A DNA stretch of 61,627 nucleotides, filler included. It is 4 parts of 4 records of this genome, joined end to end, with 100 filler letters (N's around TTAATTAATTAA, not from the genome) between each part and the next. Parts side by side here need not be neighbours in the genome. Positions count along the whole stretch, not along the records: positions 48,487 to 61,627 come from SRR31156797_1685; 3 more parts are not named here. One strand, written 5' to 3'. A model generated the notes under the pieces. The model was not told the origin of the DNA, made no database searches, and was given only the letters and a program-made list of their open reading frames with translations. Of this stretch, positions 37 to 57,152 are shown in pieces. The translations under genes were made by a program, and so were the position numbers. The stretch's first letter is position 1, and each line of letters begins with the position of its first letter.

Positions 37-408
37 ATGGAACAGAAAACACAAAAGTGCCTCTATTGCAATGGGTTAGTAAAGGGGCGTAGCGATAAGC
101 AATTTTGTAGCCCCGAATGTAAAAGTGCACACCATAATCAGCACACAAATCCGCAAGAAGATTACATTAAAACCATCAACCGACAATTACGCAAAAACCG
201 GTCGGCACTTAAAAAAGCTTGCCCATGGGGAAAAGCCACCGTCAGAAAAGAGTTTTTAAAAACAATGGGGATGGATTTCAAACACATTACGCATACATGG
301 CGCACTGAAAACAATAACCTCTATTTTTTCTGCTACGACTATGGCTATATGCAGGTGCAAGATCCCCAAAAAGTACTCATCATTCAAAAACAAGAATACA
401 TGGAGTAA
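37..408 (+). CDS. Zn-ribbon domain protein (DUF2116-like, Bacteroidota)
   Basis: CxxC...GRSDKQFCSxxC N-terminal motif; C-terminal YFFCYDYGY. Confidence 0.7.
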   Translation: MEQKTQKCLYCNGLVKGRSDKQFCSPECKSAHHNQHTNPQEDYIKTINRQLRKNRSALKKACPWGKATVRKEFLKTMGMDFKHITHTWRTENNNLYFFCYDYGYMQVQDPQKVLIIQKQEYME

Positions 409-3818: not shown

Positions 3819-3925
3819 AATTACAAATTCATTTAGCTGTAAAAATAATACTTTTGAATTTAATGTATAAGCCAGATCAAAACAAAACACACGCATAATA
3901 CGTAATAAGTGGTAAACATATCACT

Positions 3926-4315
3926 ATGGATTACTACATATCAGCCACATTAAATGAAAGCTTCGATTCAGCAAGGGCTAAAGTGGAAGAAGCCCTCAAA
4001 GATGAAGGATTCGGAGTGATTACTGAAGTTGACATGCAAGCAAAATTAAAAGATAAGCTTGGCGTTGATTTTCGAAAATACCTTGTTTTAGGAGCCTGCA
4101 ATCCGCCAATGGCTTACGAATCGTTGCAAAGCGAGAATAAAGTCGGATTGTTACTTCCTTGCAATTTGATTTTGCAAGAACTTGGTCCCAACAAAATTGA
4201 GGTAGCAACCATCGATCCTTTTGTTTCAATGCAAATAGTGGATAATGATGAGCTTTCCAAAATTGCATTGCAGGTAAAAGAAAAACTGGAAAATGTCATG
4301 AATTCATTAAGTTAA
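3926..4315 (+). CDS. DUF302 domain protein
   Basis: GFGVITEVD, LGACNP, GLLLPCN motifs. Confidence 0.92.
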   Translation: MDYYISATLNESFDSARAKVEEALKDEGFGVITEVDMQAKLKDKLGVDFRKYLVLGACNPPMAYESLQSENKVGLLLPCNLILQELGPNKIEVATIDPFVSMQIVDNDELSKIALQVKEKLENVMNSLS

Positions 4316-4347
4316 AACCATTAGCTTTGTAGCGTAAAGCTCAAATA

Positions 4348-5070
4348 ATGGTAAACCTAAGATTCGAACACCAATTTATCGTTGATAGTACCAATAATGT
4401 TCTAAAAAACGATAAAGGCAAAAAAGAAGGTGACGTTATTATTGCCAACGAACAAACCGATGGCAAAGGAATGGGCGCCAATACATGGGAAAGCGCTTAT
4501 GGTGAGAACATTACCGGAAGCATTGTATTCGAACCCACTTTTCTCAAACCAGTTGAAGCTTTTCTAATATCCATGGCCGTTTCATGCGGTATCATTAAGT
4601 TTTTATCCAAATTCAAAATACAAGCCGAGATTAAATGGCCCAACGATATTTATATCGGCAATAAAAAAATTGCGGGTATTCTGATTGAAAATGAATTCAC
4701 CAGCAGAAAAATAACCCGCACAATTGCAGGAATTGGTTTTAATGTCAACCAAACTAAATTTAGCAACGCTCCAAATCCAATCTCCCTTATACAATTAACC
4801 GGGAAAAAGCAATCCATACACTCCATCTCTGAAGAGCTCTTTCAAATGGTTTATAACCATTACGAATTACTCCGTGCCAACAAAAAACTAATCATGGAAC
4901 GCTATCATAGTCAACTATTTGGTATGAACCAGTGGCTTCTTTTTGAAAATAATAAGAGAAAGTTTTCTGGTAAAATTAAATCTGTTGCCGAAGATGGTCA
5001 GATACTAATTGTGGATGAGTCCAGAGTTGAACATCGTTACTATTTTAAGGAAGTTGAATTCATAATCTAA
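4348..5070 (+). CDS. birA: Biotin--[acetyl-CoA carboxylase] ligase without an N-terminal HTH
   Basis: DSTN, Q..GKG, IKWPNDI, KKIAGILIE, GIGFNVN; promoter box TAGCTTTG at 4322-4329. Confidence 0.93.
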   Translation: MVNLRFEHQFIVDSTNNVLKNDKGKKEGDVIIANEQTDGKGMGANTWESAYGENITGSIVFEPTFLKPVEAFLISMAVSCGIIKFLSKFKIQAEIKWPNDIYIGNKKIAGILIENEFTSRKITRTIAGIGFNVNQTKFSNAPNPISLIQLTGKKQSIHSISEELFQMVYNHYELLRANKKLIMERYHSQLFGMNQWLLFENNKRKFSGKIKSVAEDGQILIVDESRVEHRYYFKEVEFII

Positions 5071-5237
5071 GAATTTTTTAATTGATTAATCTTAGATTGA
5101 TTTTTACATTTAAGTTTATGAATAGGTGGTTATTTACCACTAACTTGTAGGAAGCGTCTGAAAATCAGCTGATTATATAAGCATTAAGTCTCACATCAGC
5201 ACGATCTGTTTTCTATTTTGTAACTTTATAAACTATA

Positions 5238-5413
5238 AGACGCAGATTTAAATGATTATAAATAAAACAAAGTTTTGTTAACAAATCTCAGATTATTGCA
5301 CTTGGAAATACAACATGAATTGTTCAAAACTCGCCAGTTTTAATTACCTGATCCTACAAAAAACTATCAAGTTCAATATCTTTTGAGTAAATAAATCAGT
5401 AAAATCAGCGTCT
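5238..5413. repeat. Imperfect 20-bp inverted repeats (17/20) bracketing a non-coding segment; MITE/REP-like remnant
   Basis: AGACGCAGATTTAAATGATT (5238-5257) versus AATCAGTAAAATCAGCGTCT (5394-5413). Confidence 0.5.
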
Positions 5414-5445
5414 AATTTAATATTTTAGTCTCTCTGCATCAATCG

Positions 5446-5700
5446 TTAATCCCCAGGCTCCTCCGGTAATCGATCCAGGTTGCGCTTAAAACGCTCCTCG
5501 TTAAACGATTCCTGTCTTTGCATCACACCATACATTTCATAAGCTACGCATTGGCCAATTAGCCTTTTCGCATCATTATTGGTCCACCCTTGTTTCACTA
5601 ATCTGTCTAAAGTCGCTTTCGTTTCAGGTGGATCATTACTTTGAATTTGATTGTCAACAATGGCCATCATTTGGGCTCTGAGTATGTCTTTTGGTTCCAT
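5446..5700 (-). CDS. Small helical hypothetical protein
   Basis: 84-aa ORF with its own Bacteroidota promoter box TACCTTTG (minus strand, 5717-5724). Confidence 0.7.
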   Translation of the reverse strand: MEPKDILRAQMMAIVDNQIQSNDPPETKATLDRLVKQGWTNNDAKRLIGQCVAYEMYGVMQRQESFNEERFKRNLDRLPEEPGD

Positions 5701-5839
5701 TTAACGGTATTTTCATCAAAGGTAAAAATACCAAATGAAATCTGATTATGTATTCGAAACTAAAAAATTGAATTTCCATGCTTTATTACTACTTTTGTGG
5801 CTTATGTTCTGCTTAAATGCTCATTAAAACTTTACAGCA

Positions 5840-8211: not shown

Positions 8212-10524
8212 CTATTTTCTTAAGTAAATGATTGCAGGAAATGGCGGTCCTATTTGCCCTTTGATTTTACCAGCAGAAATACCTTTTATTGTTTTATCAG
8301 CAAAAACAGAAGGAGAAAAACACCTTGATTGATTTAGAATAGCATCATTTAACATTTTCAAATAAGGTGATTCATACTGATGCCAGCTTTTGACTTTAAT
8401 ATTCAGCACAAATTGGCCTTCCTCAGGAAAGCTTTGAATATCAGCACAATTAGTACATTCACAGTCATCAATTTCACCAAAAACATTTGAACCCACTTCT
8501 ACCGATTCAGATATCACCGTTTTGTACGGAATAAACTGATTCGCATTAAAATAAGTTCTCAAAATAGAAGTATTCAACAGACTATATCTATTCTGCCCAC
8601 TATAATTTGGGGTTATCCAATAAGAAAACTCACCTTTCGTAATACCGGGTGCAACCATATGTAAAATCATTGTTTCAATACGATTTTGCCTTGCAGCTTC
8701 AGGTAATTCAAATAATAGCTTGCGCTCAATTTGTTCTTTTGATAAACCATCCAATACAACCAGACTGTCAAGGTCATATTGCAATAACTTTTCAATTAAA
8801 TCCTTCTTATACTGCCTGATCTCCGGAAGCACCATTCCAATAGAATCCGAAACAACAACCACATACCAGGTTTTACCTAATGGTGATGATAACTTTTGTA
8901 TTGTATCGCTACGTAATAATTTATACCGATGCGTTATTTCATTGGAAAAATAGTCTGATACTTCAATAATCAATGAGTCGTTATTCAGTATATCCAGTTT
9001 ATCATTAAAATAGTATTTTGAATCTTTAACCTGTGGTTGAATTTCCTTACCATTAATCTTTAACCATTTCAAACCTGATGCTTCATAAAAAAATCCATTG
9101 ATATTAAGCTGAGATTGTGTAACAACAATGGCACTATCTTCATTCAGCAATGGCTCCTGAAGGTATAATAATGGAGGATCCTTCTCTACCCTAAGGATTT
9201 TGTATGAATTCGATACTACATTATTGTAAACATCAGAAGCAGTTATAAAAATAGCTGAAGCTGTATCAATGTTCAATTGAATTGAGAAATCAACACCTGT
9301 TTCGGAAGAGGTAGTATCTGGTTTCCTGCCATTTACCAGCACATAAGCAATACTACTGGCATCTTCTACTTTTCCTCTAATCAAGACTTTATTCTGGGTT
9401 TTTCCTAAACTGATGGATGAATCATCAGGTCCCGGGGGTGAAATAATCACAATTTTTGGAGGAAATTTTTCCTTCTTCAATCTAAATATTCCTTGTTTTG
9501 CATAGCTTGTTTTAATCTCATCATCACTATATTTCACAACATTGTCATAGGCTTCAATAGCTTTGGATATCATGTATAACTCTTCGAGTAATTGCCCCTT
9601 GAGCAACCACGCTGATGGCGAATACGGATCCCACTCAATGTAATATGAAATATCGGATAAAGCATTTTGCAATAAGTTCTCCTTCTTGTACTGCTCGGCT
9701 CTTTCAAAATACAAATCAATTCGGGTTGGTTCCAAAGTCAAAATCTTTGTCAAATCACTTATTTGAGCCAATGTTTTGCCCATAGCGCCATAAAGCAAAG
9801 ATCTCAATCGATAACTATCAGCATCATTAAACTCTCTACATGCTTGGGAAAATATTTCAATGGCTTTATCGTAATAGTTATTCCTCACCAAAAGCTTGCC
9901 CATATCGTGATATGGTGGTTTGAATGACTTATTAATTGAAATAGCCTCGTTGTAATAAGCTATGGCATAATCAATTAACCCTAGCGAATCCGAAGCCAGC
10001 GCCTTGGCATATAGCAACTCCGCATCTTCTTTTATTTCAGCAGCCTGGTCACTAATAAGTAGACCACTTTCAGCATTACCTATATGTGTAAGTGCTAAAG
10101 ATTGGATTTTTAATGCCTCAAAATTTGCTGAATCAATATCAAGTGTGGATGTAGCAAATTGCAGAGCTTCCAAATAATTCTCCTTTTCATATAGTATTCT
10201 GGCAGTTTTAAGCTTCAGCTCAGCCCTTTCGGGAAATAATTTGGTAGCTGCAATATAATCTTTGATGGCTTCATTCCCACGATTTAATGCCTCGTAGGAC
10301 TCTGCTCTATAAATGTAAGCTTCGTTGAATTTTTGTTTTTGCGCATCAATAGCAATGGTTAACCATCCAATTGCCCTGATATGTTCATTATTTTCAAAGG
10401 CATCTTTACCAATTCGAAAAGCCTTCCCTGGCCGCTGAGATACGCCATCAAAGGCAAAAACAAACATTATCAGCACAATAAGCGCCAACCTAAAATTAAA
10501 CCTGTATAGAAATATGTTTTTCAC
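8212..10524 (-). CDS. Exported TPR protein with two Ig-like domains and a degenerate caspase-like C-terminal domain
   Basis: Signal peptide, many TPR-like helical repeats, two PP.I...P/G.V.D.S beta domains, C-terminal domain starting PLGKTW. Confidence 0.7.
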   Translation of the reverse strand: MKNIFLYRFNFRLALIVLIMFVFAFDGVSQRPGKAFRIGKDAFENNEHIRAIGWLTIAIDAQKQKFNEAYIYRAESYEALNRGNEAIKDYIAATKLFPERAELKLKTARILYEKENYLEALQFATSTLDIDSANFEALKIQSLALTHIGNAESGLLISDQAAEIKEDAELLYAKALASDSLGLIDYAIAYYNEAISINKSFKPPYHDMGKLLVRNNYYDKAIEIFSQACREFNDADSYRLRSLLYGAMGKTLAQISDLTKILTLEPTRIDLYFERAEQYKKENLLQNALSDISYYIEWDPYSPSAWLLKGQLLEELYMISKAIEAYDNVVKYSDDEIKTSYAKQGIFRLKKEKFPPKIVIISPPGPDDSSISLGKTQNKVLIRGKVEDASSIAYVLVNGRKPDTTSSETGVDFSIQLNIDTASAIFITASDVYNNVVSNSYKILRVEKDPPLLYLQEPLLNEDSAIVVTQSQLNINGFFYEASGLKWLKINGKEIQPQVKDSKYYFNDKLDILNNDSLIIEVSDYFSNEITHRYKLLRSDTIQKLSSPLGKTWYVVVVSDSIGMVLPEIRQYKKDLIEKLLQYDLDSLVVLDGLSKEQIERKLLFELPEAARQNRIETMILHMVAPGITKGEFSYWITPNYSGQNRYSLLNTSILRTYFNANQFIPYKTVISESVEVGSNVFGEIDDCECTNCADIQSFPEEGQFVLNIKVKSWHQYESPYLKMLNDAILNQSRCFSPSVFADKTIKGISAGKIKGQIGPPFPAIIYLRK

Positions 10525-10676
10525 AAATAGACGATGCTTGTGGTTATTCCTTACATTACAAAAATAATATTACTGATGGTTTAAACTCATAATGTACCGT
10601 TAAAAAGCGATTTAGCATAACGATTTTAAAATATAAACGGTCATTTTTTTACCTTTGCTTTTCAAAATAAGCGAAT

Positions 10677-12761: not shown

Positions 12762-15700
12762 ATGAAACCATTTTCTACAAAGCTTATTATTACCATTGCT
12801 TTAGTGTTTACGTCACTAATATCATTCACACAAAACACTAAAGATGTTGACCTTAGCATAGATAAAATATTCCCGGCCGTACAGGGAAATATCCCCAACG
12901 GTGATATTGATGATTTACTTTATCCATATTATGGCGGTTACAAATATGTGCCAAAACATATTATTCAGGGATTTAATATCATCGGGCTACCGGTAAATCA
13001 TCCGGGTGAAGATGCTATTACTTTTGATTGGCAACTAACTTTAACCCAGGATCCGGGAGGTTTAAATAGTCTTGTATTTGATCAAACAGAAAGCTTTACC
13101 CTAAGCACAGGTGAATCTGATATCATCACATTTGGTAATCCAATCAATCAAAATGAAGTAGGTACTTACAGACTAACAGCAACACTTTCAAGTCCGGATG
13201 ATGCAAATAGTGCAAATAATTCCGTTGATTTTGACTACTATATTTCAGATACTGAGTATGGATATGCCGATAAAAACAACATCAGCTCTTCATTTACATT
13301 ACATGATAACCCTTTAGCTCAAAATGGTGATGGCGTTGGAATAGTTACCTATTTCCCTGAGCCAGCAGGTGATCCATACACCATCAATTCAATATCCGTT
13401 TACGTTGCAGATGATTACACCGGAGTTATTGACAATGGAAATGCTTTTTTTATTGGTTTAATTTGGCCAAGAGACGAACTCACAGGAGAATGGGATTTTT
13501 CAGGTGGTGGCTTTCAAACCAATCCTAAAATGTTAACCAGCGATGATTTAAATGAAATAATTACGCTTGACCTTACATCACCTCTTGAAATAACAGAGGA
13601 AAAAGAATATTTGGTTGCAATGCACATAGTAAACAATAATGATCTTACTGATGGAGGTAGAGTTTCAATTGGAGCAGATCCTAACAGATATGCTGCCAAC
13701 GACTTAACTTGTGTTCAAATTCTAAATGGAGATCAGGTTGAATACGCAGATTATACACCTGCCATATGGGCAAATGTTGCGCCAGCGGCTAATCCTGCCA
13801 ATGATGAAGCAGAAATAACAGCCTACGCTATCGCAGGACAAGTTTCATCAAGCATAAACGCCGGAGCACAAACCATTGATGTGACAGTGCCCGGCGGAAC
13901 GGATGTTTCTAATCTTACAGCTACTTTCGCACTATCTGCCGGAGCCGCTGCAGCTGTTGGTGGTACACCTCAGGAAAGCGGATTAACGGCAAACGATTTT
14001 AGCAGTCCGGTTACCTATACCGTAACTGCTGAAGATGGAACAACCACAAAAGATTGGGTCGTAACAGTTACTGAAGCAGCCTCTTCTGAAGCTGAAATAA
14101 CTGCATACTCACTACCCGGACAAACCTCTTCTAACATAGGTGCCGGTACGCAAACTATCGATATTGTTATGCCTAACGGAACAGACGTATCTAGCCTTGC
14201 TGCCACATTTACCTTATCAGCCGGTGCTAATGCAACAGTTGGTGGCACTCCACAGGAAAGTGGCGTTACAACAAATGACTTTAGCAGTCCGGTAACTTAT
14301 ACTGTAACCGCAGAAGACGGTACAACCACTAAAGATTGGGTGGTAACAGTAACCGAAGAAGCATCAACTGAAGCAGAAATATTAGCGTATTCAATTAATG
14401 GACAAACCTCATCAAATATTGATGCAGGTGCACAAACCATTGACGTTACTGTTCCAAACGGAACAGATTTAACTAACCTTCTAGCTACTTTTACCTTATC
14501 AGCTGGTGCTAATGCAACAGTAGGTGGAACACCTCAGGAAAGTGGTGTTACAGCAAATGATTTTAGTAGTCCGGTTACCTATATTATTACCGCCGAAGAC
14601 GGAACAACAACCAAAGATTGGGTGGTAACAGTAACCGAAGGCGTGTCTACCGAATCTGATATCACGGCATACTCAATTGATGGACAAACCTCATCAAATA
14701 TTAATGCCGGTGCACAAACCATAGATGTAATCGTTCCTAACGGAACAGATGTTACTAATCTGGTTGCCATATTTACCTTATCAAACGGAGCCACTGTAGC
14801 TATTGGAGGAACACCTCAGGAAAGTGGTGTAACAGTTAATGATTTTACCAGCCCTGTTACATATACTGTTACTGCGGAAGATGGCACAACCACTAAAAAC
14901 TGGGTTGTAACAGTAACACCCGGGCTATCAAATCAAGCAAATGTCCTAACATTTAATATTCCGGGACAAACCAGCTCAAACATCAACGATGTAGACCAAA
15001 CTGTTGATGTAGTAATGCCGATTGGTACAGATTTAACAGCCTTAATTGCTGAATTTACACTTTCAACCGGGGCATCAGCCAATATTGGTGGTACACCTCA
15101 GGAAAGTGGCGTAACAGAAAATGATTTCACAATTCCGGTTGTTTACACAATTGTTGCTGAAGATGGTGTAACCGGACAAGACTGGACCGTAACTGTGACA
15201 ACAGGCGGTTCAGACGAAGCTGATATTACAGCTTATTCTATAGACGGACAATTATCATCTGATATTAATGCCGGCGCACAAACCGTTAATGTTACCATGG
15301 CCAATGGAACTGATGTAACAAACCTTGTGGCTACATTTTCGCTTTCTAACGGTGCTACAGCAGCAATTGGCGGAACTCCACAGGAAAGTGGCGTTACAGC
15401 TAATGATTTTACAAGCCCGGTAACCTACACAGTAACCGCCGAAGATGGAGCTACAACAAAAGACTGGACAGTAACTGTAACATTTGATATCTCTGATCAA
15501 GCAGACATCTTAACTTACACATTACCAGGTCAGATTAGTTCCTCAATTGATGCCGGTGCACAAACTATTTCTGTAATAGTCCCAACAGATACAGATGTAA
15601 CAAACTTAATTGCCACCTATACACTATCCACAGGAGCCAGTGCGGCAATTGGAGGCACACCGCAAGAGAGTGGTGTTACTGCCAATGATTTTACTAATCC

Positions 15701-16889
15701 TGTTGTATACACCGTTACAGCTGAAGATGGCACTACAACAAAAGATTGGACAGTAACCGTTTCTGAACAATCGGCCGGAGCAACAGACTTCATTAGCTAT
15801 AGTATTGATGGAAATGTAGGTATTATTGATTTAAATAATGGTTATATCCGTGTTGAGGTTCCAGGTGGAACAGACCTAACGCAACTAACCGCTGATTTCG
15901 AAGTAGTTGCAGGTACAATTGTTAGAATCGGAACAACCGTTCAGGAAAGTGGCATAACAGTGAACGATTTCTCTGATATTGTTGAATACAGGCTAATTCC
16001 AGAAACAGGAGTTTCTAAGAAATGGTATATCGATGTGGTGGAAACCAGCAATATGAACACAAATGCTGATTTCGCTTACTTCGGATTTTACGGACAAACA
16101 CAGCCTGCAGAAATTGATACCCAATCTAACTTCATATCAGTAAACCTTGATCCAAATTTAGATGTAACTCAACTCATTCCAATCTTCTACCTATCAGATG
16201 GAGCCATTGCCTACATTGGTAATTCGATTCAGTGGAGTGGAGAAAATGTGGTTGATTTCTCATCAGGAGTAAGCTATATAGTAATTGCAGAAGATGGTGT
16301 AAGCTCTGAACTTTGGACTGTACAGGTAACAACCAATCAGAATTCAGCGGCAAAAATCTTATCATTTACATTCCCTGCAATACCTGGAAACGATCAAACT
16401 ACAACAATTAACCAGGGAGCAAGAAGCATAAATGTTGCTGTTCCTCAAGGTACACCAAGAAATAATTTGGTTGCCCAATATCAGTTAAGTTCAGGAGCGT
16501 CAGCTGAGGTTAATGGAACAGAACAAATTAATGGTGTTACTGCTAACAATTTTAATACACCTGTAATCTATACCATCACCTCTCAAAACGGAGATGTTGA
16601 AGAGAGTTGGATTGTAAGTGTAACATATGCTGTTGGAATTGGTGAAAATGAATTATTATCATTTAACATGTACCCAAATCCAGCCAAAGAATCTGTTACC
16701 ATTCAATTATCTCAATTGCTTGAAAATACGAGTTTGAAAATATTGAACATGGTTGGCAAAACAGTTCATGTGCAAGAATTGAATGCCTTAAATTCAAATA
16801 TCGATATAGCAAGCTTAGAGAAAGGTATTTACCTGGTTGTTATCGGTAATTCAACAGACCAAACAATTGAAAAACTAATAATAAGATAA
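12762..16889 (+). CDS. Large T9SS-secreted surface protein with ten ~94-aa Ig-like (DUF5018-like) repeats
   Basis: Signal peptide from MKPFSTK; repeats GTD...L.A.F.LS.GA...QESGVT.NDF..PV.Y.V.AEDG; CTD with MYPNPA...GIY...KLII. Confidence 0.88.
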   Translation: MKPFSTKLIITIALVFTSLISFTQNTKDVDLSIDKIFPAVQGNIPNGDIDDLLYPYYGGYKYVPKHIIQGFNIIGLPVNHPGEDAITFDWQLTLTQDPGGLNSLVFDQTESFTLSTGESDIITFGNPINQNEVGTYRLTATLSSPDDANSANNSVDFDYYISDTEYGYADKNNISSSFTLHDNPLAQNGDGVGIVTYFPEPAGDPYTINSISVYVADDYTGVIDNGNAFFIGLIWPRDELTGEWDFSGGGFQTNPKMLTSDDLNEIITLDLTSPLEITEEKEYLVAMHIVNNNDLTDGGRVSIGADPNRYAANDLTCVQILNGDQVEYADYTPAIWANVAPAANPANDEAEITAYAIAGQVSSSINAGAQTIDVTVPGGTDVSNLTATFALSAGAAAAVGGTPQESGLTANDFSSPVTYTVTAEDGTTTKDWVVTVTEAASSEAEITAYSLPGQTSSNIGAGTQTIDIVMPNGTDVSSLAATFTLSAGANATVGGTPQESGVTTNDFSSPVTYTVTAEDGTTTKDWVVTVTEEASTEAEILAYSINGQTSSNIDAGAQTIDVTVPNGTDLTNLLATFTLSAGANATVGGTPQESGVTANDFSSPVTYIITAEDGTTTKDWVVTVTEGVSTESDITAYSIDGQTSSNINAGAQTIDVIVPNGTDVTNLVAIFTLSNGATVAIGGTPQESGVTVNDFTSPVTYTVTAEDGTTTKNWVVTVTPGLSNQANVLTFNIPGQTSSNINDVDQTVDVVMPIGTDLTALIAEFTLSTGASANIGGTPQESGVTENDFTIPVVYTIVAEDGVTGQDWTVTVTTGGSDEADITAYSIDGQLSSDINAGAQTVNVTMANGTDVTNLVATFSLSNGATAAIGGTPQESGVTANDFTSPVTYTVTAEDGATTKDWTVTVTFDISDQADILTYTLPGQISSSIDAGAQTISVIVPTDTDVTNLIATYTLSTGASAAIGGTPQESGVTANDFTNPVVYTVTAEDGTTTKDWTVTVSEQSAGATDFISYSIDGNVGIIDLNNGYIRVEVPGGTDLTQLTADFEVVAGTIVRIGTTVQESGITVNDFSDIVEYRLIPETGVSKKWYIDVVETSNMNTNADFAYFGFYGQTQPAEIDTQSNFISVNLDPNLDVTQLIPIFYLSDGAIAYIGNSIQWSGENVVDFSSGVSYIVIAEDGVSSELWTVQVTTNQNSAAKILSFTFPAIPGNDQTTTINQGARSINVAVPQGTPRNNLVAQYQLSSGASAEVNGTEQINGVTANNFNTPVIYTITSQNGDVEESWIVSVTYAVGIGENELLSFNMYPNPAKESVTIQLSQLLENTSLKILNMVGKTVHVQELNALNSNIDIASLEKGIYLVVIGNSTDQTIEKLIIR
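13806..16625 (+). repeat. Intragenic tandem repeat, ~282-bp unit x10; first seven units most similar
   Basis: Unit starts at 13806, 14088 and onward; recurring CCTCAGGAAAGTGG and GAAGATGG cores. Confidence 0.9.
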
Positions 16890-16905
16890 GGTTAGAAGAG
16901 AACTT

Positions 16906-16952
16906 AAAATACCCAAAACGAATTTCATGTTTATTGTTTTGGGTATTTTTTT
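16906..16952 (+). terminator. Rho-independent terminator
   Basis: AAAATACCCAAAAC / GTTTTGGGTATTTT stem followed by a T-run. Confidence 0.8.
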
Positions 16953-17029
16953 ATTCCATAATAGATTTCTATTTGTAATAATCCCCCTATCTTTATCTTG
17001 AAAAAAGAAACCGGTTTAAATCAACTTTT

Positions 17030-18127
17030 ATGAACAAAAATAATTACGCCATAATTATGGCTGGCGGTGTGGGAAGCAGGTTCTGGCCCTGGAGTAAAAC
17101 TGAAAAGCCAAAGCAATTTTTGGATGTATTAGGAACTGGAAAAACGTTAATTCAGCAAACTTATGAGAGAATTAACAGAATTTGTCCCAGAGAAAACATT
17201 TTAATTATCACGAATGGCTTATATGCTGATACTATTGCAGAGCAAGTTGCAGATATACCTCGTGAAAATATTTTAAGTGAGCCAAAAGGAAGAAATACCG
17301 CTCCATGTATTGCCTATGGTGCATTTAAAATTCAACGCCATAACCCCAATGCCAATATCTTAGTAGCCCCGTCTGATCATGTAATATTAAAAGAAGATTT
17401 GTTCGTAAAAGTTGTGGAAGAAGCATTTAATTATGTACAAGAAAATGAGGTTTTACTTACTATAGGTATCGATCCGCACAAACCTGAAACTGGATATGGC
17501 TACATACAATCAACAGGTAACGTAATCAAAGAAAGCCCTGGTGAATGGCAATTATCAGAAGTTTCAGCATTTAGAGAAAAACCAAATGTTGAAAAAGCCA
17601 AAGAGTTTCTTGAAAGTGGCGATTACTTCTGGAATGCCGGGATTTTTGTATGGTCGGTTAGAACAATTATTCGCTCATTTGAGAAACATTTACCAACTAT
17701 GCACAGTCAATTTGATGCGTTTGAAACTGACTATAATACCAAAAATGAGGAAGCAGCTGTTCGTACTATTTTTAATCAATGTGACAGCATTTCAATTGAT
17801 TATGGTATTATGGAGAAAGCCAAAAATGTGTGTGTAATCAGCACAGATATTGGATGGTCAGACATGGGATCATGGAGTACGCTGCATGAGGTTTCTTCCA
17901 AAGATGAAGAAGGAAACGCATCTAATACCAAAAAATCTCTGTTCTACAATTCGAAAAATTGCTTACTCAGAACACTTGATAATAAAGTCGCGGTTATAGA
18001 AGGACTTGAAGACTACATTGTTGTTGAAGAGGAGAATGCAATACTTATTTGTCGCAAACAAAACGAGCAATTAATTAAAGAATTCGTAAAAGATGTAGGT
18101 GATAAATTTGGGGAAGATTATATTTAA
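17030..18127 (+). CDS. manC: Mannose-1-phosphate guanylyltransferase
   Basis: IMAGGVGSRFWP.S...PKQF, EP.GRNTAP, PSDH, PETGYGYI, F.EKP, WNAGIF, SIDYGIME, GWSD.GSW. Confidence 0.95.
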   Translation: MNKNNYAIIMAGGVGSRFWPWSKTEKPKQFLDVLGTGKTLIQQTYERINRICPRENILIITNGLYADTIAEQVADIPRENILSEPKGRNTAPCIAYGAFKIQRHNPNANILVAPSDHVILKEDLFVKVVEEAFNYVQENEVLLTIGIDPHKPETGYGYIQSTGNVIKESPGEWQLSEVSAFREKPNVEKAKEFLESGDYFWNAGIFVWSVRTIIRSFEKHLPTMHSQFDAFETDYNTKNEEAAVRTIFNQCDSISIDYGIMEKAKNVCVISTDIGWSDMGSWSTLHEVSSKDEEGNASNTKKSLFYNSKNCLLRTLDNKVAVIEGLEDYIVVEEENAILICRKQNEQLIKEFVKDVGDKFGEDYI

Positions 18128-48486: not shown

Positions 48487-48494
48487 TAAAGATT

Positions 48495-49589
48495 ATGCTA
48501 CCAGTTAATCTTAAACCTTATAAAGATGAATCATTTATATCATGGTTTTGTCGTACTTCATTTGAAAATGGGACTGATCCCAAAAGCTTAGCATTATCTA
48601 TTTGGAATGAAGATAGCTTACTCTATAGAGATTTAGATCGTTTCATTCCTGATAGACTAGTTTATGAATTTGCTAAGCAAACATATCTAGATTTTGAAGA
48701 TATTAAAAAATTAACTTTAGAACCATTAATTGACAAAGTAGATACATCTGAAAGTGAAAATCCTTATAAAAAATGGTATTTTGTTATACCATTTGGGCAG
48801 AAAGGAAAAATAAGAACAAATGGGATATATTTTTGTCCTGAATGTTTAAACTCTAAAATACCATTTATAAATAAATATTGGAGAATATCTTGGTATCTTA
48901 TCTGTCCTAAACATAAAAAACAACTTTTTTTAAATTGTCCTAAATGTAATCAAATATTTTCGCCAGAAAAACAAGATTACTTAAATCCACATATATATCT
49001 ATGTAGTAAATGCAAATATGACCTTAGAACAATTAATGCAAACCCTGTTAATGATGATTTATTAGCTTTTCAAAATAAATTAACTAATATTTTTTCAAAC
49101 ACAAAACAAAGTTTTTCTTTTCCACTTTTAGTTACAAAATCTAAGAAGGACCTATTTTTAACATTGAATATTCTTCTATCCTTTCTACATAAAATACTTA
49201 GGCAACCAATAAGATTTAGAACAATAATTGAATCACTTGATATTATTACAAAGCATAAATTTACTTCTATAAATAATGGAGTCTTTTCAAGATTAAATTA
49301 TCAGGATAGATATCTATTATTATATTACTGTGCTAAATTATTTCAATTCTCAACTGAAAAATTTATTAATACACTTAATGATAATCATATAACTCAAAAT
49401 ATTTTTCAACAAACTTTTAAAACGTTGTCACCTACGGTTAACTATATTATGACGCACTTATCAGACAAAAAACTACATAGAAATATCTCAAGAATAAAAA
49501 AAAGTATATTTCCACATAATCATGATGAAGTTCAAAAACTATTTGAAGAAATTAGACCTTTTTTAACCAATTATGACATCATTAAATAA
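48495..49589 (+). CDS. tniQ: TniQ family Tn7-like target-selection protein
   Basis: P..DES..SW..R...NG, RD.D, FCPECL....P.....WR.....C..H...L...CP.C and C..C zinc motifs. Confidence 0.9.
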   Translation: MLPVNLKPYKDESFISWFCRTSFENGTDPKSLALSIWNEDSLLYRDLDRFIPDRLVYEFAKQTYLDFEDIKKLTLEPLIDKVDTSESENPYKKWYFVIPFGQKGKIRTNGIYFCPECLNSKIPFINKYWRISWYLICPKHKKQLFLNCPKCNQIFSPEKQDYLNPHIYLCSKCKYDLRTINANPVNDDLLAFQNKLTNIFSNTKQSFSFPLLVTKSKKDLFLTLNILLSFLHKILRQPIRFRTIIESLDIITKHKFTSINNGVFSRLNYQDRYLLLYYCAKLFQFSTEKFINTLNDNHITQNIFQQTFKTLSPTVNYIMTHLSDKKLHRNISRIKKSIFPHNHDEVQKLFEEIRPFLTNYDIIK

Positions 49590-50175
49590 AATAAAAGAAA
49601 AGCTTCTTAATAACTTTAAAAAAGAAGATATAAAGCTATTAATATTTAAAAAATTCACTATTTATATTATAAAAGAAGTCGATGATAAAAGTATTGCTAT
49701 AAGTTATGCAGAAAAAATTATAAAATCTACATATAGCTATTTGATATATTGTAATAATTTTCAAAATAAACAACCAACTCAGACTTCATTAGAAGGTTAT
49801 TTATGGATATATTATTCACAAAAATATTTTCTAAAAAGATTTATAAATTATCTTATTAAATTCTATAAAATAGAACTAGATATTGCAAAAATTAAAAAAC
49901 CTGTATTCAAAAGACCTATGAAGTCACATCAAATATTAAAACAAAGAGTGATTTATATATTGAATACTCCAAACGATAAACATTTAACTCAAAAATATAT
50001 AATGGATGCTTTCATTGGTTATTTTCATTGGATTTTTATACCTTCTAATGTTTTTCTTAGTGTAAATAACATTAAAAAGAATAAGAACAATTGCTTCTTA
50101 AAAATTTCTGCTCATACACTTTTTTTACCAAAAGAAATTCTTAAAGTTAAATTCGATGATAAATCTATTAAGTGA
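49573..50175 (+). CDS. Putative TnsF/TniE-like protein, C-terminal part only
   Basis: Overlaps the tniQ stop by 17 bp; PTQ..L..YL....Q......FINYL...Y, YFH and terminal FLPK resemble my recollection of the Tn6022 TniE/TnsF C-terminus. Confidence 0.5.
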   Translation: MTSLNKIKEKLLNNFKKEDIKLLIFKKFTIYIIKEVDDKSIAISYAEKIIKSTYSYLIYCNNFQNKQPTQTSLEGYLWIYYSQKYFLKRFINYLIKFYKIELDIAKIKKPVFKRPMKSHQILKQRVIYILNTPNDKHLTQKYIMDAFIGYFHWIFIPSNVFLSVNNIKKNKNNCFLKISAHTLFLPKEILKVKFDDKSIK

Positions 50176-50195: not shown

Positions 50196-52109
50196 TCATG
50201 TTTGTATTTTTTTAATTTTTCTTTTAATATTGCTTTTTAAACCTACATATTCTTCTGTATTTTCATTATAAATATGTTTATATGTTTCGTATTTTACATC
50301 TAAACTCACAGGTTTAAATTTGTCTGTTAACTCATCTTTCTTAATATAATTTCCTCTATTTTTTATAATTTTCTCTAGAAGCTTTAATAAAGTATCATTC
50401 AATATCTTATTGAATTTATTAGCAATAAAAACTAATCCTGAATAATGTTCCTTTTCTTTTTTCCCTATTTCTAATAAATAGCAATATTTATTAATATTTA
50501 GTTCAATTTCAACAAGTAAATACTCTCTAAATCCTAATGTCTTTAACTCATTTTTCTCTCGTTCTTTTAGCGTATACCATCTATCTTTCAAGTCTTCTTT
50601 TTTTGAACCTGAATTTAATTTCATATCATAAAAATTTGAATTTGTAAATTTATTTTTTCTCTTAAAATCATTATCTAATATCTTATAGTTAATTAGAAAC
50701 GTTTCAGTTCTTAAGAGTTCTAAAGTTTCTATCACAACAGTAAAGAGTTTTTTTGTTGATATATTTGAGAAGCTTGCATAACCTGCTATTTGGGTCACTT
50801 TCATGTCTCCACTATCTCTTTGCTCTGCCTCAGATGCTTCCTTAATTTCTTCAATAGATTCAGTAATTTCTTTATTTTTAAAGTTTTCTCTATTATAACT
50901 ATATGGGTTTTCATTTTTAGACTCTTCATCTTCAACAACATTAGTTACTTCTTTGTCTATTATTTCATGGGAGTAAGAAAATTTACCATCATCAACTATT
51001 CTTACTTGGGTTTTCATTCTTTCAACAGATGTTCTTGTTCCAGGAATATTATTACTATCAATATCTAAAGATAATTCTAATACCTGTTGTCTAGATTCTT
51101 CTTGATTATCATTTTCTTCAATAGTATCATCATCTCCACTATTGTTTTCTTCAGCAGGCTTTACTCTTTCTTCTTGAATATTCTCTTTGATTTGCTTTGT
51201 GACTCCCTCTACCTTAATGTCGCTTGGAGTTTCCACCTCGTTAATTCTAAATACTAAAAAAACTTTTTTATTAAGCCATATTCCATCTGTTGTAATATGA
51301 AAAGAAGTTGGGTGATAAGGCAATACAATAGGATATCTTATGGGATAACTCCCATCTTTATCTCCTTCATCAAATTCTAAGCTTGTACTTAAGTATTTAA
51401 CTCTTTTTCTAGATACACTATTGAATTTTAGATAAGCCAAGAACTTAGCAGTTGAAATCTCCATTCTATTTTTTAGCCCAATAAAATATGTTGAATTCTC
51501 AATTTTTGTATTATCCATATCTATAAACTCATCAATTACTTTGTCAAAATCATATTGAAGTAATTTATGCTTTATAATTTTATTTTCTGGAGTATAAGTA
51601 GATACATATAATTCTATAGCTGGTATTAGTATCGTAATATCTCCATTTATTAACTTTACATATTTTGTTTTATTAATAAGTTTCATTTTATTCTGAAGAT
51701 AGTCTGCCAACTTTACTTTATAAATATTAGAAATAGAACTTTTTAAAGAATTAAGTATTTGGCTATAAGATATTGTTTCAGGTGGATACTCAATAAAATT
51801 AAAATCAAATTTTACACATTCTTCATAACTAAATTCATTGTAGTTATACCAGTTTTTTCTTACTAAATTTTTGTTCTTCCAAATGGAACCTAATCTTACA
51901 TCATCAAGTTCACCTATAGGAACATAAATAAGAATATCAGGTGTATCTATAATAAAATTACCAGTATTTAGGTCTACCTTTCTTAGTATTATTTGTACAT
52001 TGGGTACTTGAGATTTGTTTTCAAACTTCACAATTGCACCATATTTTAGAACTAAATAAAAAGAATCATCATTAGGTAGATTTTTAAATTTTTCTTTTAA
52101 ACTCTTCAT
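50196..52109 (-). CDS. Putative TnsE-like / Tn6022 orf4-like protein
   Basis: 637 aa, convergent on tniQ; YGAIVK..VP.V, R.GSIW, LIP.IE, FLA, G.W....FLV..I, then an acidic linker and a separate C-terminal domain. Confidence 0.45.
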   Translation of the reverse strand: MKSLKEKFKNLPNDDSFYLVLKYGAIVKFENKSQVPNVQIILRKVDLNTGNFIIDTPDILIYVPIGELDDVRLGSIWKNKNLVRKNWYNYNEFSYEECVKFDFNFIEYPPETISYSQILNSLKSSISNIYKVKLADYLQNKMKLINKTKYVKLINGDITILIPAIELYVSTYTPENKIIKHKLLQYDFDKVIDEFIDMDNTKIENSTYFIGLKNRMEISTAKFLAYLKFNSVSRKRVKYLSTSLEFDEGDKDGSYPIRYPIVLPYHPTSFHITTDGIWLNKKVFLVFRINEVETPSDIKVEGVTKQIKENIQEERVKPAEENNSGDDDTIEENDNQEESRQQVLELSLDIDSNNIPGTRTSVERMKTQVRIVDDGKFSYSHEIIDKEVTNVVEDEESKNENPYSYNRENFKNKEITESIEEIKEASEAEQRDSGDMKVTQIAGYASFSNISTKKLFTVVIETLELLRTETFLINYKILDNDFKRKNKFTNSNFYDMKLNSGSKKEDLKDRWYTLKEREKNELKTLGFREYLLVEIELNINKYCYLLEIGKKEKEHYSGLVFIANKFNKILNDTLLKLLEKIIKNRGNYIKKDELTDKFKPVSLDVKYETYKHIYNENTEEYVGLKSNIKRKIKKIQT

Positions 52110-52621: not shown

Positions 52622-54480
52622 GTGTTTAAATTAGATGGATTAAAGAGTTTATATATAAGAAATATAGCTCTAACAATATTATTTGCAGTTATAGTTACAA
52701 TAATAACTTCTATTGTAAATTATAATATAAAGTATATAGAAATCAATGAACAAATAAAAAAAGATGTAGAGTTTGATTCAAAAAAAATTAAATTATCAAT
52801 AAAAAGTTATTTAGACAATATTGAGAATACTATTGATGCAATATTAGTTAACAAAATTTTTACAAATTATTTACAGAAGAATACTGAAAAAGATAAAAAA
52901 TTAGTAGCAAGTTTATTTGAAAGTTTAATGTATAGTCATAAAAGTTTATTTCAATTGAGGTTTATTGATAAAGATGGTTTTGAAAAAGTTAGAATAGAAA
53001 AAGAAAGAAATACTGACTATATCTATGCTGTTCCTGAAGAATTATTACAAAATAAATCTAGTAGATATTATTTTAAAAAACAATTAAAAACAAAGAAGGT
53101 TCTTTTTATTATTCTAATTTAGATTTAAATGTAGAAAATAAAAAAATTGAATTACCATTAAGACCTACGATAAGAATTTCAACAAATGTTTTTTATAAAG
53201 GGAACTTTTATGGAATAATAATTGCCAATGTTGAAATGGATAATTTATTGTCAATAATAGAATCAAATAACAATTTTAATATTTATTTAGTAGACAATGA
53301 AGGAAACTTTATAATTCATCCAGAGAAGAAAAAAAGGTGGAATAAGTATTTAAGCAATGGACATACTGTTTTTTCAGAGTTTAATTCATCAAATACTTTA
53401 GAAACAATAAATACACAAACAGATAGATTTATATTTCCATTAAAAAGTTATTTTAAAAATGAGGAAGAAATAAAGCTAATATTAGAAGCTGAGAATGAAT
53501 ATGTAAATAATGTTAAAAATAGTAATCTAAAATATCTAATAATTCTTGCAAGTTCAATTCTTATTATTTCCATAGTACTTGGATTTATAATCTCAATTCC
53601 TATTTCAAAAATATATTTGAATTTTAACAAATTATACAAAGATAATCTAAGATTTATGGATATTATAGATAAATATGTTATTACAATGAATGTAGGATTG
53701 GATAAAAAAATTATTAGTGTAAGTACTGCTTTATCTAAAATTAGTGGTTATAAAAAAGATGAACTTATTGGAAAAGAACCATCTATATTAAAAAGTAATG
53801 ATACGTCTGTAGAATTATATAAAAATTTATGGAATAATATTTCAAATGGATTAGTATGGGAAGGAGAACTAAAAGATAAAGGTAAAGATGGTACTTCTTA
53901 TTGGTTAAAATCTATTATTTTACCTAATTTTAATGATAATAAAAAAATTACAAGCTTTACCTCAATAAGTGAAAATATTACAGATAAAAAAGTAATAGAA
54001 GAGTTGTCTCAAACAGATAAACTTACACAGTTAGCTAATAGATTTATGTTAGATAAATCTTTAGAAATTGAGTTTGAAAGATACAAAAGAACAGGAGAAG
54101 TTTTTTCTATTTTATTAATAGATATAGATAAGTTTAAAGAAGTTAATGACACTTTCGGTCACCAAGTTGGGGATGTAGTATTAATTGAATTATCAAAAAT
54201 ATTAAAAGAAAATTCAAGAAAAATAGATACAGTTGGACGATGGGGCGGTGAAGAATTTTTAATTATATGCCCTGATACAAAAAAAGTAGGAGCTTTATCT
54301 TTTGCAGAAAAAATAAGAAAAGAAGTGGAGTTTAATACTTTTACTTATGTAAAAAATAAAACAGTGAGTATTGGTTTAGCAGAGATTAATAACAATGATA
54401 CAATTTTAACACTACTTCAACGAGCAGATCAAAAACTTTATTTGGCAAAAGAAAATGGAAGAAATCGAGTAGAAAGTTAA
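52622..54480 (+). pseudogene. Cache-PAS-GGDEF diguanylate cyclase split by a 1-nt frameshift in an A6 run (53075-53080)
   Basis: Adding one A gives RYYFKKTIKNKEGSFYYSNLDLNVEN...RPTIR, colinear with the paralog's RYYFKKTKE...SNIDLNIEN...PTVR and in frame with ORF 53236-54480 (RKID I-site, GGEEF). Confidence 0.85.
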
Positions 54481-54485
54481 GGTTT

Positions 54486-57152
54486 ATGCATATTTCAAAA
54501 AACAAAAATATTTTTAAAAACAATATTAAGATAATTAAATATGTATTTATTTTATCTCTTTTATGTTTTGGAATTTTAATTACATTAATAACTCTTTATA
54601 TAAATTACTACTACCAAATTAATAAAATTTATTCAAATCTAAGAACAGAAGCAAAAAAAGAAGCTTCTGATAAAATAAAAAAAATAAATACTTATATTGA
54701 AAGTCACATAGATATAATTAATTCATTAAAAAACAATGAAATATTTAATAACTATATTAATAATTCAAATGATGATGATAATAAAAAAATAAATTTATTT
54801 TTATTTAGACAGGCAATAGAATCAAATAAAAGTATTATGCAATTAAGATTTATTGATAAAAATGGTTTTGAAAAAGTTAAACTTAAAAGAGACTCTAGAT
54901 TAAGTAAAATAAAAGAGATTGAAAATATTTTATTACAAAATAAAAAAGATAGATACTATTTTAAAAAAACTAAAGAATTAAGTGCTAATAAATATTATGT
55001 CTCAAATATAGATTTAAATATTGAAAATGGTGAAATACAAAAGCCCATAACTCCTACTGTTAGATTAGCTATTCCTATTAAAGAAAAAGGAAACTTTGAA
55101 GGAATAATTATATTAAATCTATTTGTAGAAAGGCTACTTAAAGAATTAGAAAAGTCAACTTATTTTAATACTTTTATTATTGATTCAAAGGGAAACTTGA
55201 TATTTGGTAAAAATAAAGAACAAGATTTGTCTTGGTCTCAACAATTAAAAAAAACTGTAAATATTGAAGATTATTTAGGAATATCTTTTGATAAGATTTT
55301 TGAAATGGATAACTATTATTCATCAATAATCTTTTCCAAAAAAATTAGTACAAATGTGATACATCATCAAAAACTATTCATGATACTTCAAGCAAAAGAA
55401 GAGTTGATTTACAATAATAAAGAAATCATCAAAAACAATATCCTAAAGATAGTTTTAATTATAGTCTTTTTGAGTATTATCATTGGTTTTTTACTATCTC
55501 TTATTCCTATAAATCAAATAAAAAAAGCTTTAAGCTTAGAAGATAAATTAGTTGATAATAAAAACTTACTAGATGAATATATAAAAGCAATGAATATTCA
55601 TAATATCATTTCAAAGTCAGATTTAAAAGGTAATATAACATATGTAAATGATAATTTTTCAAAAGTAACAGGATATCAAAAAGAAGAAGTACTAGGTAAG
55701 CCACACTCCCTTTTACGTTCAAAAGAAACTAAAAAAGAGACATTTATTGATCTCTGGCAAACTATACATAATAATAAAGTATGGACAGGCATTTTAAAAA
55801 ATAAGAAAAAAAATGGAGATTTCTATTTTGTAAATATTTCTATTGTTCCTATTACAAATAAAGAAGATGAAGTAATAGAATACGTTGGAATAAGACATGA
55901 AATCACAGAGTTAATAAAACAAAAAGAAGAAGTCTTATTTTCATTAAAAAATGATAATTTAACAAAATGCCCTAATCGGGTTAAACTCGTTGAGGATTTA
56001 GAAAAATCTGAGAAAAATAATTTAGCTGTTATTGATATTGATGATTTTTCTTCAATTAATGATTTTTACGGACATTTAATAGGAGATGTAGTAATTGTGC
56101 AATTTGCAAAACTTATTCAAAGCCTTTTAGATAAAAACTTTAAATTATATAGACTACATGCAGATAAATTTGCAATATTAAACAACTCTTTACCTAAAAA
56201 AGATTTTATTAAATTTATGAATCTAATAAATATAAAAATTGTTGATTCTAAAATAAATATTGATATTAAGTCTTTTGATATATCTCCTTCAATAGGAATC
56301 TCTTTTGAAAACAAATATGAATTGTTAATAACTGCAGAAATAGCAAATAAGCATGCAAAAAAGATAAATAAAGATGTATTTACATATCAAAAAAAATTTC
56401 AAATTGAAAGAGATGTAGAGGACAATCTTATTTGGATAGAAAAAATTAAACGCTCTATAAAAGAAAACAGAATAATTGTTCTTTATCAGCCAATTTATAA
56501 TAATAGAACTAATAAAGTAGAAAAGTATGAAGTATTAGTCAGACTTAAAGAAATTGATGGAAAATTAATTTCACCATATTATTTTCTAGAAATAGCAAAA
56601 AAATATAAACAATATACTAACTTAACAAAAAGAGTTATTGATCTTTCTTTTGAAAAATTCAAATATTCAAATTATGAATTTTCAATAAACCTCACTGTTG
56701 AAGATATTTTAAATGAAGAGATTAATGCGTATTTAATAAGAAAAATAAATGAGTATAATATAGGAAATAAATTAGTTATAGAATTAGTAGAATCTGAAAA
56801 TATTGAAAATTTTGATCAAGTTTTAAATTTTATGAACTTAATAAAAACATATGGTTGTAAAATAGCAATTGATGATTTTGGAACAGGTTATAGTAATTTT
56901 GAGTACTTACTTAGAATAAATGCAGATTATTTAAAAATTGATGGTTCTCTAATAGAAAATATTGATTCAAATAAAACCTCTAAAGATGTAGTTCAAACAA
57001 TAATAAACTTTGCTCATAAAATGGACTACAAAGTAATAGCAGAATATGTTTCTAACAAAAGTATATTTAATGAAGTAAATCAATTGGGTATTGACTATTC
57101 TCAAGGATATTATATTGGTGTACCTGATGAAGAAATTTTAAAAGAGAATTAA
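54486..57152 (+). CDS. Cache-PAS-GGDEF(degenerate)-EAL c-di-GMP phosphodiesterase
   Basis: Two TM segments, PAS, HADKF replacing GGDEF, EVLVR, DDFGTGYSN, KIDGS, AEYV, QGY. Confidence 0.92.
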   Translation: MHISKNKNIFKNNIKIIKYVFILSLLCFGILITLITLYINYYYQINKIYSNLRTEAKKEASDKIKKINTYIESHIDIINSLKNNEIFNNYINNSNDDDNKKINLFLFRQAIESNKSIMQLRFIDKNGFEKVKLKRDSRLSKIKEIENILLQNKKDRYYFKKTKELSANKYYVSNIDLNIENGEIQKPITPTVRLAIPIKEKGNFEGIIILNLFVERLLKELEKSTYFNTFIIDSKGNLIFGKNKEQDLSWSQQLKKTVNIEDYLGISFDKIFEMDNYYSSIIFSKKISTNVIHHQKLFMILQAKEELIYNNKEIIKNNILKIVLIIVFLSIIIGFLLSLIPINQIKKALSLEDKLVDNKNLLDEYIKAMNIHNIISKSDLKGNITYVNDNFSKVTGYQKEEVLGKPHSLLRSKETKKETFIDLWQTIHNNKVWTGILKNKKKNGDFYFVNISIVPITNKEDEVIEYVGIRHEITELIKQKEEVLFSLKNDNLTKCPNRVKLVEDLEKSEKNNLAVIDIDDFSSINDFYGHLIGDVVIVQFAKLIQSLLDKNFKLYRLHADKFAILNNSLPKKDFIKFMNLINIKIVDSKINIDIKSFDISPSIGISFENKYELLITAEIANKHAKKINKDVFTYQKKFQIERDVEDNLIWIEKIKRSIKENRIIVLYQPIYNNRTNKVEKYEVLVRLKEIDGKLISPYYFLEIAKKYKQYTNLTKRVIDLSFEKFKYSNYEFSINLTVEDILNEEINAYLIRKINEYNIGNKLVIELVESENIENFDQVLNFMNLIKTYGCKIAIDDFGTGYSNFEYLLRINADYLKIDGSLIENIDSNKTSKDVVQTIINFAHKMDYKVIAEYVSNKSIFNEVNQLGIDYSQGYYIGVPDEEILKEN

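Follow-up and report, generated by a model that had tools for sequence, protein, structure and literature searches.

A putative miniature TnsF as partner of TniQ in Tn6022-like transposons of the Arcobacteraceae

Tn6022 and its relatives are transposons of the Tn7 family that target the gene comM. Their target selector TnsF, the gene of which was formerly called tniE or orf3, was named and described by Faure et al. (2023; PMC10293859). TnsF partners with a TniQ of 369 amino acids (aa). It is composed of zinc fingers (first 199 aa), CB1 and CB2, which both resemble core-binding domains, and about 70 aa of a partial catalytic domain (pCAT). For AjTn6022, pull-down experiments and mutants have shown that TnsF docks on TniQ via pCAT. 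The attachment site of Tn6022 was mapped to the Walker B region of comM, and Tn6022-like elements bear a remote tnsE on the opposite strand (PMC10293859). The DNA stretch analyzed here, in the following called the window, has a length of 61,627 nucleotides (nt) and contains, next to a short tniQ gene, an open reading frame (ORF) for a protein of 200 aa, which will be called mini-TnsF. To our knowledge, TnsF is the only well-studied recombinase-derived target selector of Tn7-type elements, and it has been described as a four-part protein of about 500 aa. With a probability of roughly three in four, the ORF encodes a working miniature TnsF, i.e., a target selector that partners with TniQ in a Tn6022-like transposon of Arcobacteraceae.

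Mini-TnsF and the TnsF of Tn6022 are homologous over the last about 190 residues, and both are encoded directly after, and overlapping with, a gene for a TniQ of about 365 aa. The layout of the elements is also shared, including a TnsE-like gene on the opposite strand, and so are the target comM, the orientation of the insertion with tnsA adjoining the 3' fragment of comM, the 5-bp duplication, and the similar TGTCATTT termini. The differences concern the size and architecture of the protein (200 aa, no CxxC motif, and one core-binding domain versus 476-498 aa, 12 CxxC motifs, and two core-binding domains), the position of insertion (about 57 codons after Walker B in relatives with a mini form versus about 15 codons before it for the Tn6022 type), and the recurrent fusion of mini forms to the C-terminus of TniQ, which sets them apart from Tn6022 TnsF. 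From XerD, XerH, lambda Int, and IntI mini-TnsF differs by the lack of the parts bearing the conserved His/Arg/His and the tyrosine, and by being encoded in a Tn7-type operon. Tsy TnsF belongs to the same wider family and also targets comM, but it is longer, catalytically active, and works with tyrosine recombinase (YRec) and helix-turn-helix (HTH) proteins without TniQ or TnsABC (PMC10293859). The logic is the same as for TnsD of Tn7 and the short TniQ of CRISPR-associated transposons, namely that a short TniQ hub needs a specificity partner. Here the partner would be a recombinase-derived protein of 200 aa, instead of a C-terminal TnsD extension or a Cas effector.

Within the literature searched, the TnsF family and its system are known, while the architecture of the 200-aa protein, the monophyly of the mini forms, their repeated fusion to TniQ, and a second comM site appear to be new. 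No description of short TnsF forms was found among the publications listed for TnsF, comM, and Tn7 or by term look-ups in PMC10293859 and PMC11014353, and a mention in supplementary material is possible. Among the entries listed in the supplementary loci of PMC10293859 is an Arcobacter lanthierii element with tnsA, tnsB, tnsC, and tniQ, and without a tnsF entry.

Homology, fold and conservation of mini-TnsF

The gene order in the window is tnsC tail, tniQ, and mini-tnsF (Table 1). The ATG of mini-tnsF precedes the tniQ stop codon, and the two genes overlap by 17 nt. The same 17-nt overlap is found in the related locus L001 from a Halarcobacter metagenome-assembled genome (tniQ 8923-10017, mini-tnsF 10001-10585). 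The window TniQ is 79% identical to the TniQ of L001 and 25% identical to that of Tn6022 (E 8e-26). Mini-TnsF has two cysteines (C60 and C174), none of them in a CxxC motif, and contains the motifs QPTQTSLEGYLWIYYSQKYFLKRFINYLIKFY, GYFH, and LFLPK.

A phmmer search with mini-TnsF against 1.84 billion representative sequences retrieved 41 matches, with E-values down to 7e-23 for full-length forms. Ten proteins of 472-494 aa align to mini-TnsF solely via their C-terminal about 190 residues. The N-terminal extensions of the full-length forms comprise 275-284 aa with 11-12 CxxC motifs, and this part with its zinc fingers is missing from mini-TnsF. One full-length relative (P0021, 490 aa) was used for a tblastn search and matched the gene following a "TniQ family protein" in 51 Acinetobacter records (identity about 29-30%, 96-99% of its length covered). 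One of these records represents the Tn6022/AbaR4 backbone, with tnsA, a Mu-type transposase, TniB, TniQ, and a hypothetical protein of 476 aa; the match of P0021 to the Tn6022 gene after tniQ extends over 98-99% of the length. Direct comparison of mini-TnsF with Tn6022 TnsF gave a BLASTP E-value of 2e-6, and a profile of the mini family compared with the single Tn6022 TnsF sequence gave a probability of 83%. When the same profile was aligned by hhalign with a profile of 12 full-length TnsF proteins, two of them from Acinetobacter, the probability was 99.9% (E 2.9e-34, 190 columns), and mini columns 7-196 were placed on columns 299-488 of the 493 columns of the TnsF profile. The alignment thus begins at TnsF position 299/493, and with the CB1 boundary taken from the domain map in PMC10293859, mini-TnsF is predicted to lack CB1. 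From the same map and the alignment coordinates it would correspond to CB2 plus pCAT.

The AlphaFold2 model of mini-TnsF is of high quality by its own scores (predicted local distance difference test, pLDDT, 93.0; predicted template modeling score, pTM, 0.88) and contains one core-binding domain, with the SAM-like fold known from tyrosine recombinases, followed by a probable partial catalytic domain. The latter consists of two helices and one hairpin, and the chain stops about 15 residues past the hairpin, at residue 200. The complete catalytic set of tyrosine recombinases is Arg-Lys-His-Arg-His/Trp-Tyr, and a complete catalytic domain is not present in mini-TnsF. Because the chain ends shortly past the first beta-hairpin, the region that bears the catalytic tyrosine is absent, and mini-TnsF would be unable to catalyze recombination; as modeled, it is not an enzyme. 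In a Foldseek comparison of the whole model with the PDB, nothing reached E <= 0.001. IntI, Cre, XerA, and Brujita Int ranked highest (E 0.12-1.2), at root mean square deviations above 12, which is interpreted as the two domains being oriented differently to each other. When the sequences of solved structures were searched with the mini-TnsF family profile, the matches (Spc25 at E 0.0026, a LIM protein at 0.049) did not exceed chance level.

The original prediction, which had been made from the sequence without database searches, fits these results well. It had described a protein of 200 aa without CxxC motifs whose start overlaps the tniQ stop by 17 bp, and the ORF coordinates and the cysteine count agree with each of these points; all motifs quoted at that time are present in the translated ORF. 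The likeness to the C-terminal part of TnsF, which it had proposed, is borne out by the phmmer matches, the link via P0021 to Tn6022, and the profile-profile alignment, and a structural similarity to recombinase domains exists in the form of the core-binding and the probable partial catalytic folds. The proposed minimal TniQ partner without zinc fingers was right with respect to the zinc fingers, but more than these is gone, since CB1 is also missing.

Mini-TnsF is not an isolated protein. A word-indexed search found 14 homologs of similar length with 41-97% identity to it. Twelve of the 14 have a length of 194-212 aa, and the remaining two (180 and 154 aa) are from contigs of 1.4 and 0.95 kb. 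One homolog is labeled as a hypothetical protein of Aliarcobacter butzleri, and a member of its cluster occurs on 46 contigs. An alignment of 13 mini-TnsF rows has 35 invariant columns, 23 of which lie within residues 110-160, i.e., in the pCAT-like part, which is the most conserved stretch. The ratio of nonsynonymous to synonymous substitutions (dN/dS) between mini-tnsF of the window and of L001 (72% identity) is 0.19 at a dS of 0.86, similar to the 0.21 of the adjacent tniQ; values for more distant pairs are near saturation and were not relied on. Only one column is invariant over all 46 mini and full-length rows, that of H152, the His of G-Y-F-H, which is also kept in both Acinetobacter TnsF proteins and is a candidate contact residue.

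A phylogenetic tree was calculated by a quick search from the shared region (57 rows, 215 columns) and rooted on the two Acinetobacter TnsF proteins. The free-standing mini forms and the TniQ fusions all fall into one group of 23 rows, supported by a Shimodaira-Hasegawa-like approximate likelihood ratio test (SH-aLRT) value of 91. Their sister is a protein of 402 aa with six CxxC motifs (support 97), followed outward by a group to which a protein of 488 aa belongs. The mini clade has diversified to 38-97% identity, with constant length and start. Forms of 208-362 aa (P0022-P0025, P0032-P0034, P0036, P0037, P0039, P0040, P0043, and P0048) each adjoin a full-length protein on the tree and are probably partial gene calls rather than further shortened architectures. 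Judged by the diversified clade and the dN/dS of 0.19, mini-tnsF is not a recent deletion product. The overlap with tniQ had been taken in the original prediction as deliberate coupling and not decay, and decay is indeed contradicted by the old clade, the conserved length of about 200 aa, and the purifying selection.

Fusions of both proteins occur in nature. In two clusters (P0019 and P0097, 561 aa) a TniQ is followed in frame by a whole mini-TnsF, and in five clusters (P0031 and P0112-P0115, 462-464 aa) TniQ is followed by a linker of about 35 residues and the pCAT part only. The fused ORFs are uninterrupted at the DNA level (L002 871-2556 and L005 8840-10234). According to the tree, fusions have arisen at at least three places in the mini clade, and the branch leading to the group of pCAT-only fusions is very long (2.22 changes per column). 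The fusions are the best evidence in this analysis that TniQ and mini-TnsF probably act together. A complex prediction for TniQ and mini-TnsF had a score of 0.00, with the alignments unused and the fold of the partner uncertain, and it counts neither for nor against binding.

Insertion sites in comM and proposed target selection

The relative in L001 belongs to a complete element. The gene order there is comM 3' fragment (Mg_chelatase_C), tnsA, tnsB, a TniB-type tnsC, tniQ (364 aa), the 194-aa gene, and a convergent gene for a protein of 662 aa. A full tnsA-tnsB-tnsC-tniQ operon is present in L001 as well as in L004 and L005. The element in the genome of this relative spans G001:C4:127815-155619 (27,805 bp), and the 5' part of comM is found 27.8 kb from the 3' fragment. 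Its termini are similar to one another (TG(T/A)CATTT), with ends beginning with TGACATTT and TGTCATTT, and it is flanked by the 5-bp duplication ATCTA (+ strand). Removal of the element in silico restores comM (...NPCPCGNLLTINNSCRCNELEIKKYKNRLSEPFLDRIDL...). Insertion into comM is hence seen for L001/G001 at both junctions, and for L004 and L005 at the right junctions.

A profile search of 401 Campylobacterales genomes revealed seven genomes with a TnsF relative, and the positions at which comM is split were expressed as positions of the Pfam family PF01078 (Mg_chelatase; Table 1). All full-length TnsF loci (5/5) are inserted at the Walker B site, and all shortened, mini, or fused loci (5/5) in the CPCG...CxC region about 60-75 codons further on. 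For A. baumannii this is in agreement with the published mapping of the attachment site to Walker B. The readable junctions of mini-form relatives lie at the C-x-C codons downstream of N-P-C-P-C-G, about 57 codons past Walker B. The attachment site at Walker B, a feature of TnsF, is therefore not that of the mini-form relatives (about 171-177 versus about 90-96). The pattern of site versus length is suggestive, the loci being related to one another. In one island (G358:C44, L026 and L028) the left junction is at the C-P-C-G codons and the right one about 36 bp further on at the C-x-C codons, and the segment in between is gone. This points to two insertions and subsequent recombination or deletion, and the island is regarded as hybrid or rearranged. 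The earlier proposal that the small protein implies a different way of recognizing the target is supported only indirectly: the relatives do insert elsewhere in comM, but a TniQ fused to pCAT only is found at the same place.

A T-run followed by GAY (codons F/L-L/F-D) was observed about 53-67 nt from the insertion, on the side of the right end, at both comM sites (flanks of L001, L004, L005, L014, L022, L026, and L027). In L027, with its site at the C-P-C-G codons, a T-run and GAY are about 90 nt away. This is not claimed to be a shared recognition word, as the word is short, the genomes are AT-rich, and a chance occurrence is possible.

Taken together with the architecture, the sites allow a tentative proposal, which is possible rather than probable: a module of about 200 residues (one core-binding domain and pCAT) and a short TniQ might suffice to direct a Tn7-type transposase to a single 5-bp position in a conserved gene, and the loss of zinc fingers and CB1 might have gone along with a shift of the site from Walker B to the C-P-C-G...C-x-C codons about 200 bp downstream. 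If this is true, TnsF would read its target in a modular fashion, with the position being set by its N-terminal parts, and the repeated TniQ fusions would act as protein-guided target selectors made of a single chain, one lineage of which manages with about 90 pCAT residues on TniQ. The mini form, the fusions, and the second comM site represent a natural deletion series for the questions which TnsF domains bind TniQ, read DNA, and set the insertion position, and mini-TnsF points to a compact, fusable, protein-guided targeting module.

It is somewhat unlikely, although it has to be taken seriously, that the difference in comM sites has nothing to do with the loss of domains, and instead characterizes one TnsF lineage or the comM sequence of the hosts, with the shortening having occurred later and independently. 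The forms of 390-393 aa (G358 and G311) speak for this, because they keep six CxxC motifs and a sequence of CB1 length and yet already use the downstream region, and because they are located outside the mini clade on the free tree. On the other hand, in an approximately unbiased (AU) test a single clade of the mini forms, P0018, and the G358/G311 forms was not rejected (p-AU 0.125; this grouping was chosen with the tree already at hand), and the division of the sites by length is without exception among the ten loci. A further AU test, in which all forms with six CxxC motifs were joined with the mini clade and P0040, a close sister of P0042, was left out, gave p 2.5e-6 and is uninformative.

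If mini-TnsF is a working target selector, the following steps can be envisaged. It would be made in step with TniQ by translational coupling through the 17-nt overlap, and it would dock on TniQ via its pCAT part, as has been found for AjTn6022 TnsF. The two proteins would then mark the downstream comM site for TnsC and TnsAB, and these would insert the element with the tnsA end toward the 3' part of comM, as in Tn6022. The first candidate for the DNA reader is the core-binding domain, which has been retained, but the pCAT-only fusions at the same site leave room for TniQ or pCAT in this role. An alternative is that mini-TnsF is a true TnsF relative that no longer reads DNA and has become a cofactor of TniQ, which for example shapes or stabilizes the TniQ-TnsC interface, while TniQ or another factor recognizes comM. 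Both the five clusters of TniQ::pCAT fusions, which do without a core-binding domain and of which L005 is inserted at the same comM codons, and the concentration of invariant columns in the pCAT-like part (23/35) would fit a mere adaptor. Nevertheless it appears unlikely, because the core-binding domain has been kept and conserved in all free-standing mini forms (15/15) and in the 561-aa fusions, because the same fold mediates the DNA contact of XerD, lambda Int, and XerH, and because the pCAT-fusion group, with its long branch, may be a derived special case.

Several points weigh against mini-TnsF being a working target selector. Homology, fold, conservation, gene order, the fusions, and the insertion sites of relatives are shown directly by the analysis, whereas binding to TniQ, binding to DNA, and a role in targeting are what we infer for this protein. 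The core-binding domain may not set the site, given that the TniQ::pCAT fusion of L005, without such a domain, is found at the same comM position. The pattern of site versus length is thin, as it comprises ten loci that are phylogenetically not independent, and the junctions of G358 are mixed with about 36 bp of comM missing. The activity and target of the window copy are taken from relatives with 41-72% identity, its own comM junction being unseen. In addition, no Pfam, NCBIfam, or PHROG model matches mini-TnsF, the best rows in these family libraries being DNA polymerase III delta' at E 0.0067, which is far below the cut-off, and two PHROGs at E 0.09-0.28, and the ESM Atlas contained no usable match.

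That mini-tnsF is a decaying remnant, namely the 3' piece that a deletion has left of a full-length tnsF within an element no longer able to home, is highly improbable, because, although full-length relatives exist in the same gene order and the element in the window is incomplete as assembled, the clade is diversified with constant length and start at a dN/dS of 0.19, L001 has all tns genes together with matching ends and a clean 5-bp duplication, one cluster member is present on 46 contigs, and the truncation in the window has another cause than deletion (see below).

Make-up of the window, neighboring genes and cargo

The window is a concatenated draft, in which contigs have been chained via N-runs around a TTAATTAATTAA linker. 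It has been joined artificially at three points, and therefore the gene neighborhood across the joins is meaningless. The gene for RNase Y (rny, identified by domain matches) is interrupted at 48386 by a join, and the transposon contig begins behind it within the last seven codons of tnsC, the tail of which overlaps the start of tniQ by 14 nt. Because the contig starts within the tnsC tail, the window does not include tnsA, tnsB, the larger part of tnsC, or the right end. The truncation of the element is due to an assembly join and not to a deletion. A search of the window revealed no match to TnsA, TnsB, or TnsC and no comM fragment elsewhere, and neither an end-like repeat past the TnsE-like gene nor a recognizable left end was found in it.

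Table 1. Features of the window and positions of insertions in comM of relatives (the latter given as positions of PF01078).
Feature or locus	Position	Strand	Remarks
Putative miniature tnsF, 200 aa	49573..50175	+	ATG start; CB2-equivalent about residues 18-111, probable pCAT about residues 112-190
Short tniQ, 364 aa	48495..49589	+	PF06527, E 7.4e-21
tnsC tail, last 7 codons (KDYATS, stop)	48487..48508	+	Same residues as at the C-terminus of L001 TnsC
Convergent 637-aa gene, probable remote tnsE	50196..52109	-	Same place in relatives (L001 662 aa, L005 646 aa)
Artificial contig join	31664-31763		44 N, TTAATTAATTAA, 44 N
Artificial contig join	40835-40934		44 N, TTAATTAATTAA, 44 N
Artificial contig join	48387-48486		44 N, TTAATTAATTAA, 44 N; between truncated rny and transposon contig
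A. baumannii chromosome record, TnsF identical to the L006 copy	PF01078 91-96		Duplication ACCGC; about 15 codons before Walker B
G124, G181, G338, G233, TnsF frames of 479-502 aa with 12-13 CxxC	PF01078 90-96		
G311, 393 aa with 6 CxxC	PF01078 about 157-174		Duplication CCTTG inside the N-P-C-P-C-G codons
G358, 390 aa with 6 CxxC	PF01078 about 165-170		Left junction shared with G311; right junction <=2 nt from the G001 site
G001, mini form	PF01078 171-177		Both junctions read
L004, mini form, 41% identical to that of the window			Right junction <=3 nt from the G001 site
L005, TniQ::pCAT fusion			Right junction <=3 nt from the G001 site

The convergent gene downstream of mini-tnsF encodes a protein of 637 aa that is 37% identical to the 662-aa neighbor in L001 (E 7e-113) and belongs to a family with 16 homologs. 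TnsE_C is the sole Pfam family seen in this protein family, below the cut-off, in 3/14 members and in L005; the window protein has no Pfam match of its own and no usable match in the ESM Atlas. From these similarities and its location, the family is probably a remote TnsE. The middle part of the window protein is acidic and of low complexity.

The elements of the relatives carry different cargo genes. L001 contains two radical-SAM genes and genes for a peptidoglycan-binding protein and a MauG-like di-haem peroxidase (12818-17745), L005 an Eco57I/MmeI-like restriction-modification fusion (12854-16753), and L003 a SIR2-HerA pair (2766-5730). In L003 the tniQ before mini-tnsF (about 1-2100) reads in two frames, as pieces of 144 aa and 115 aa, and may be frameshifted. 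In the window, an ORF for a sensor domain (52622-53122, + strand, 166 aa) and a PAS-GGDEF ORF (53236-54480, + strand, 414 aa) look like one split gene, and the pair resembles the N-terminal two thirds of the sensor-PAS-GGDEF-EAL protein encoded at 54486-57152.

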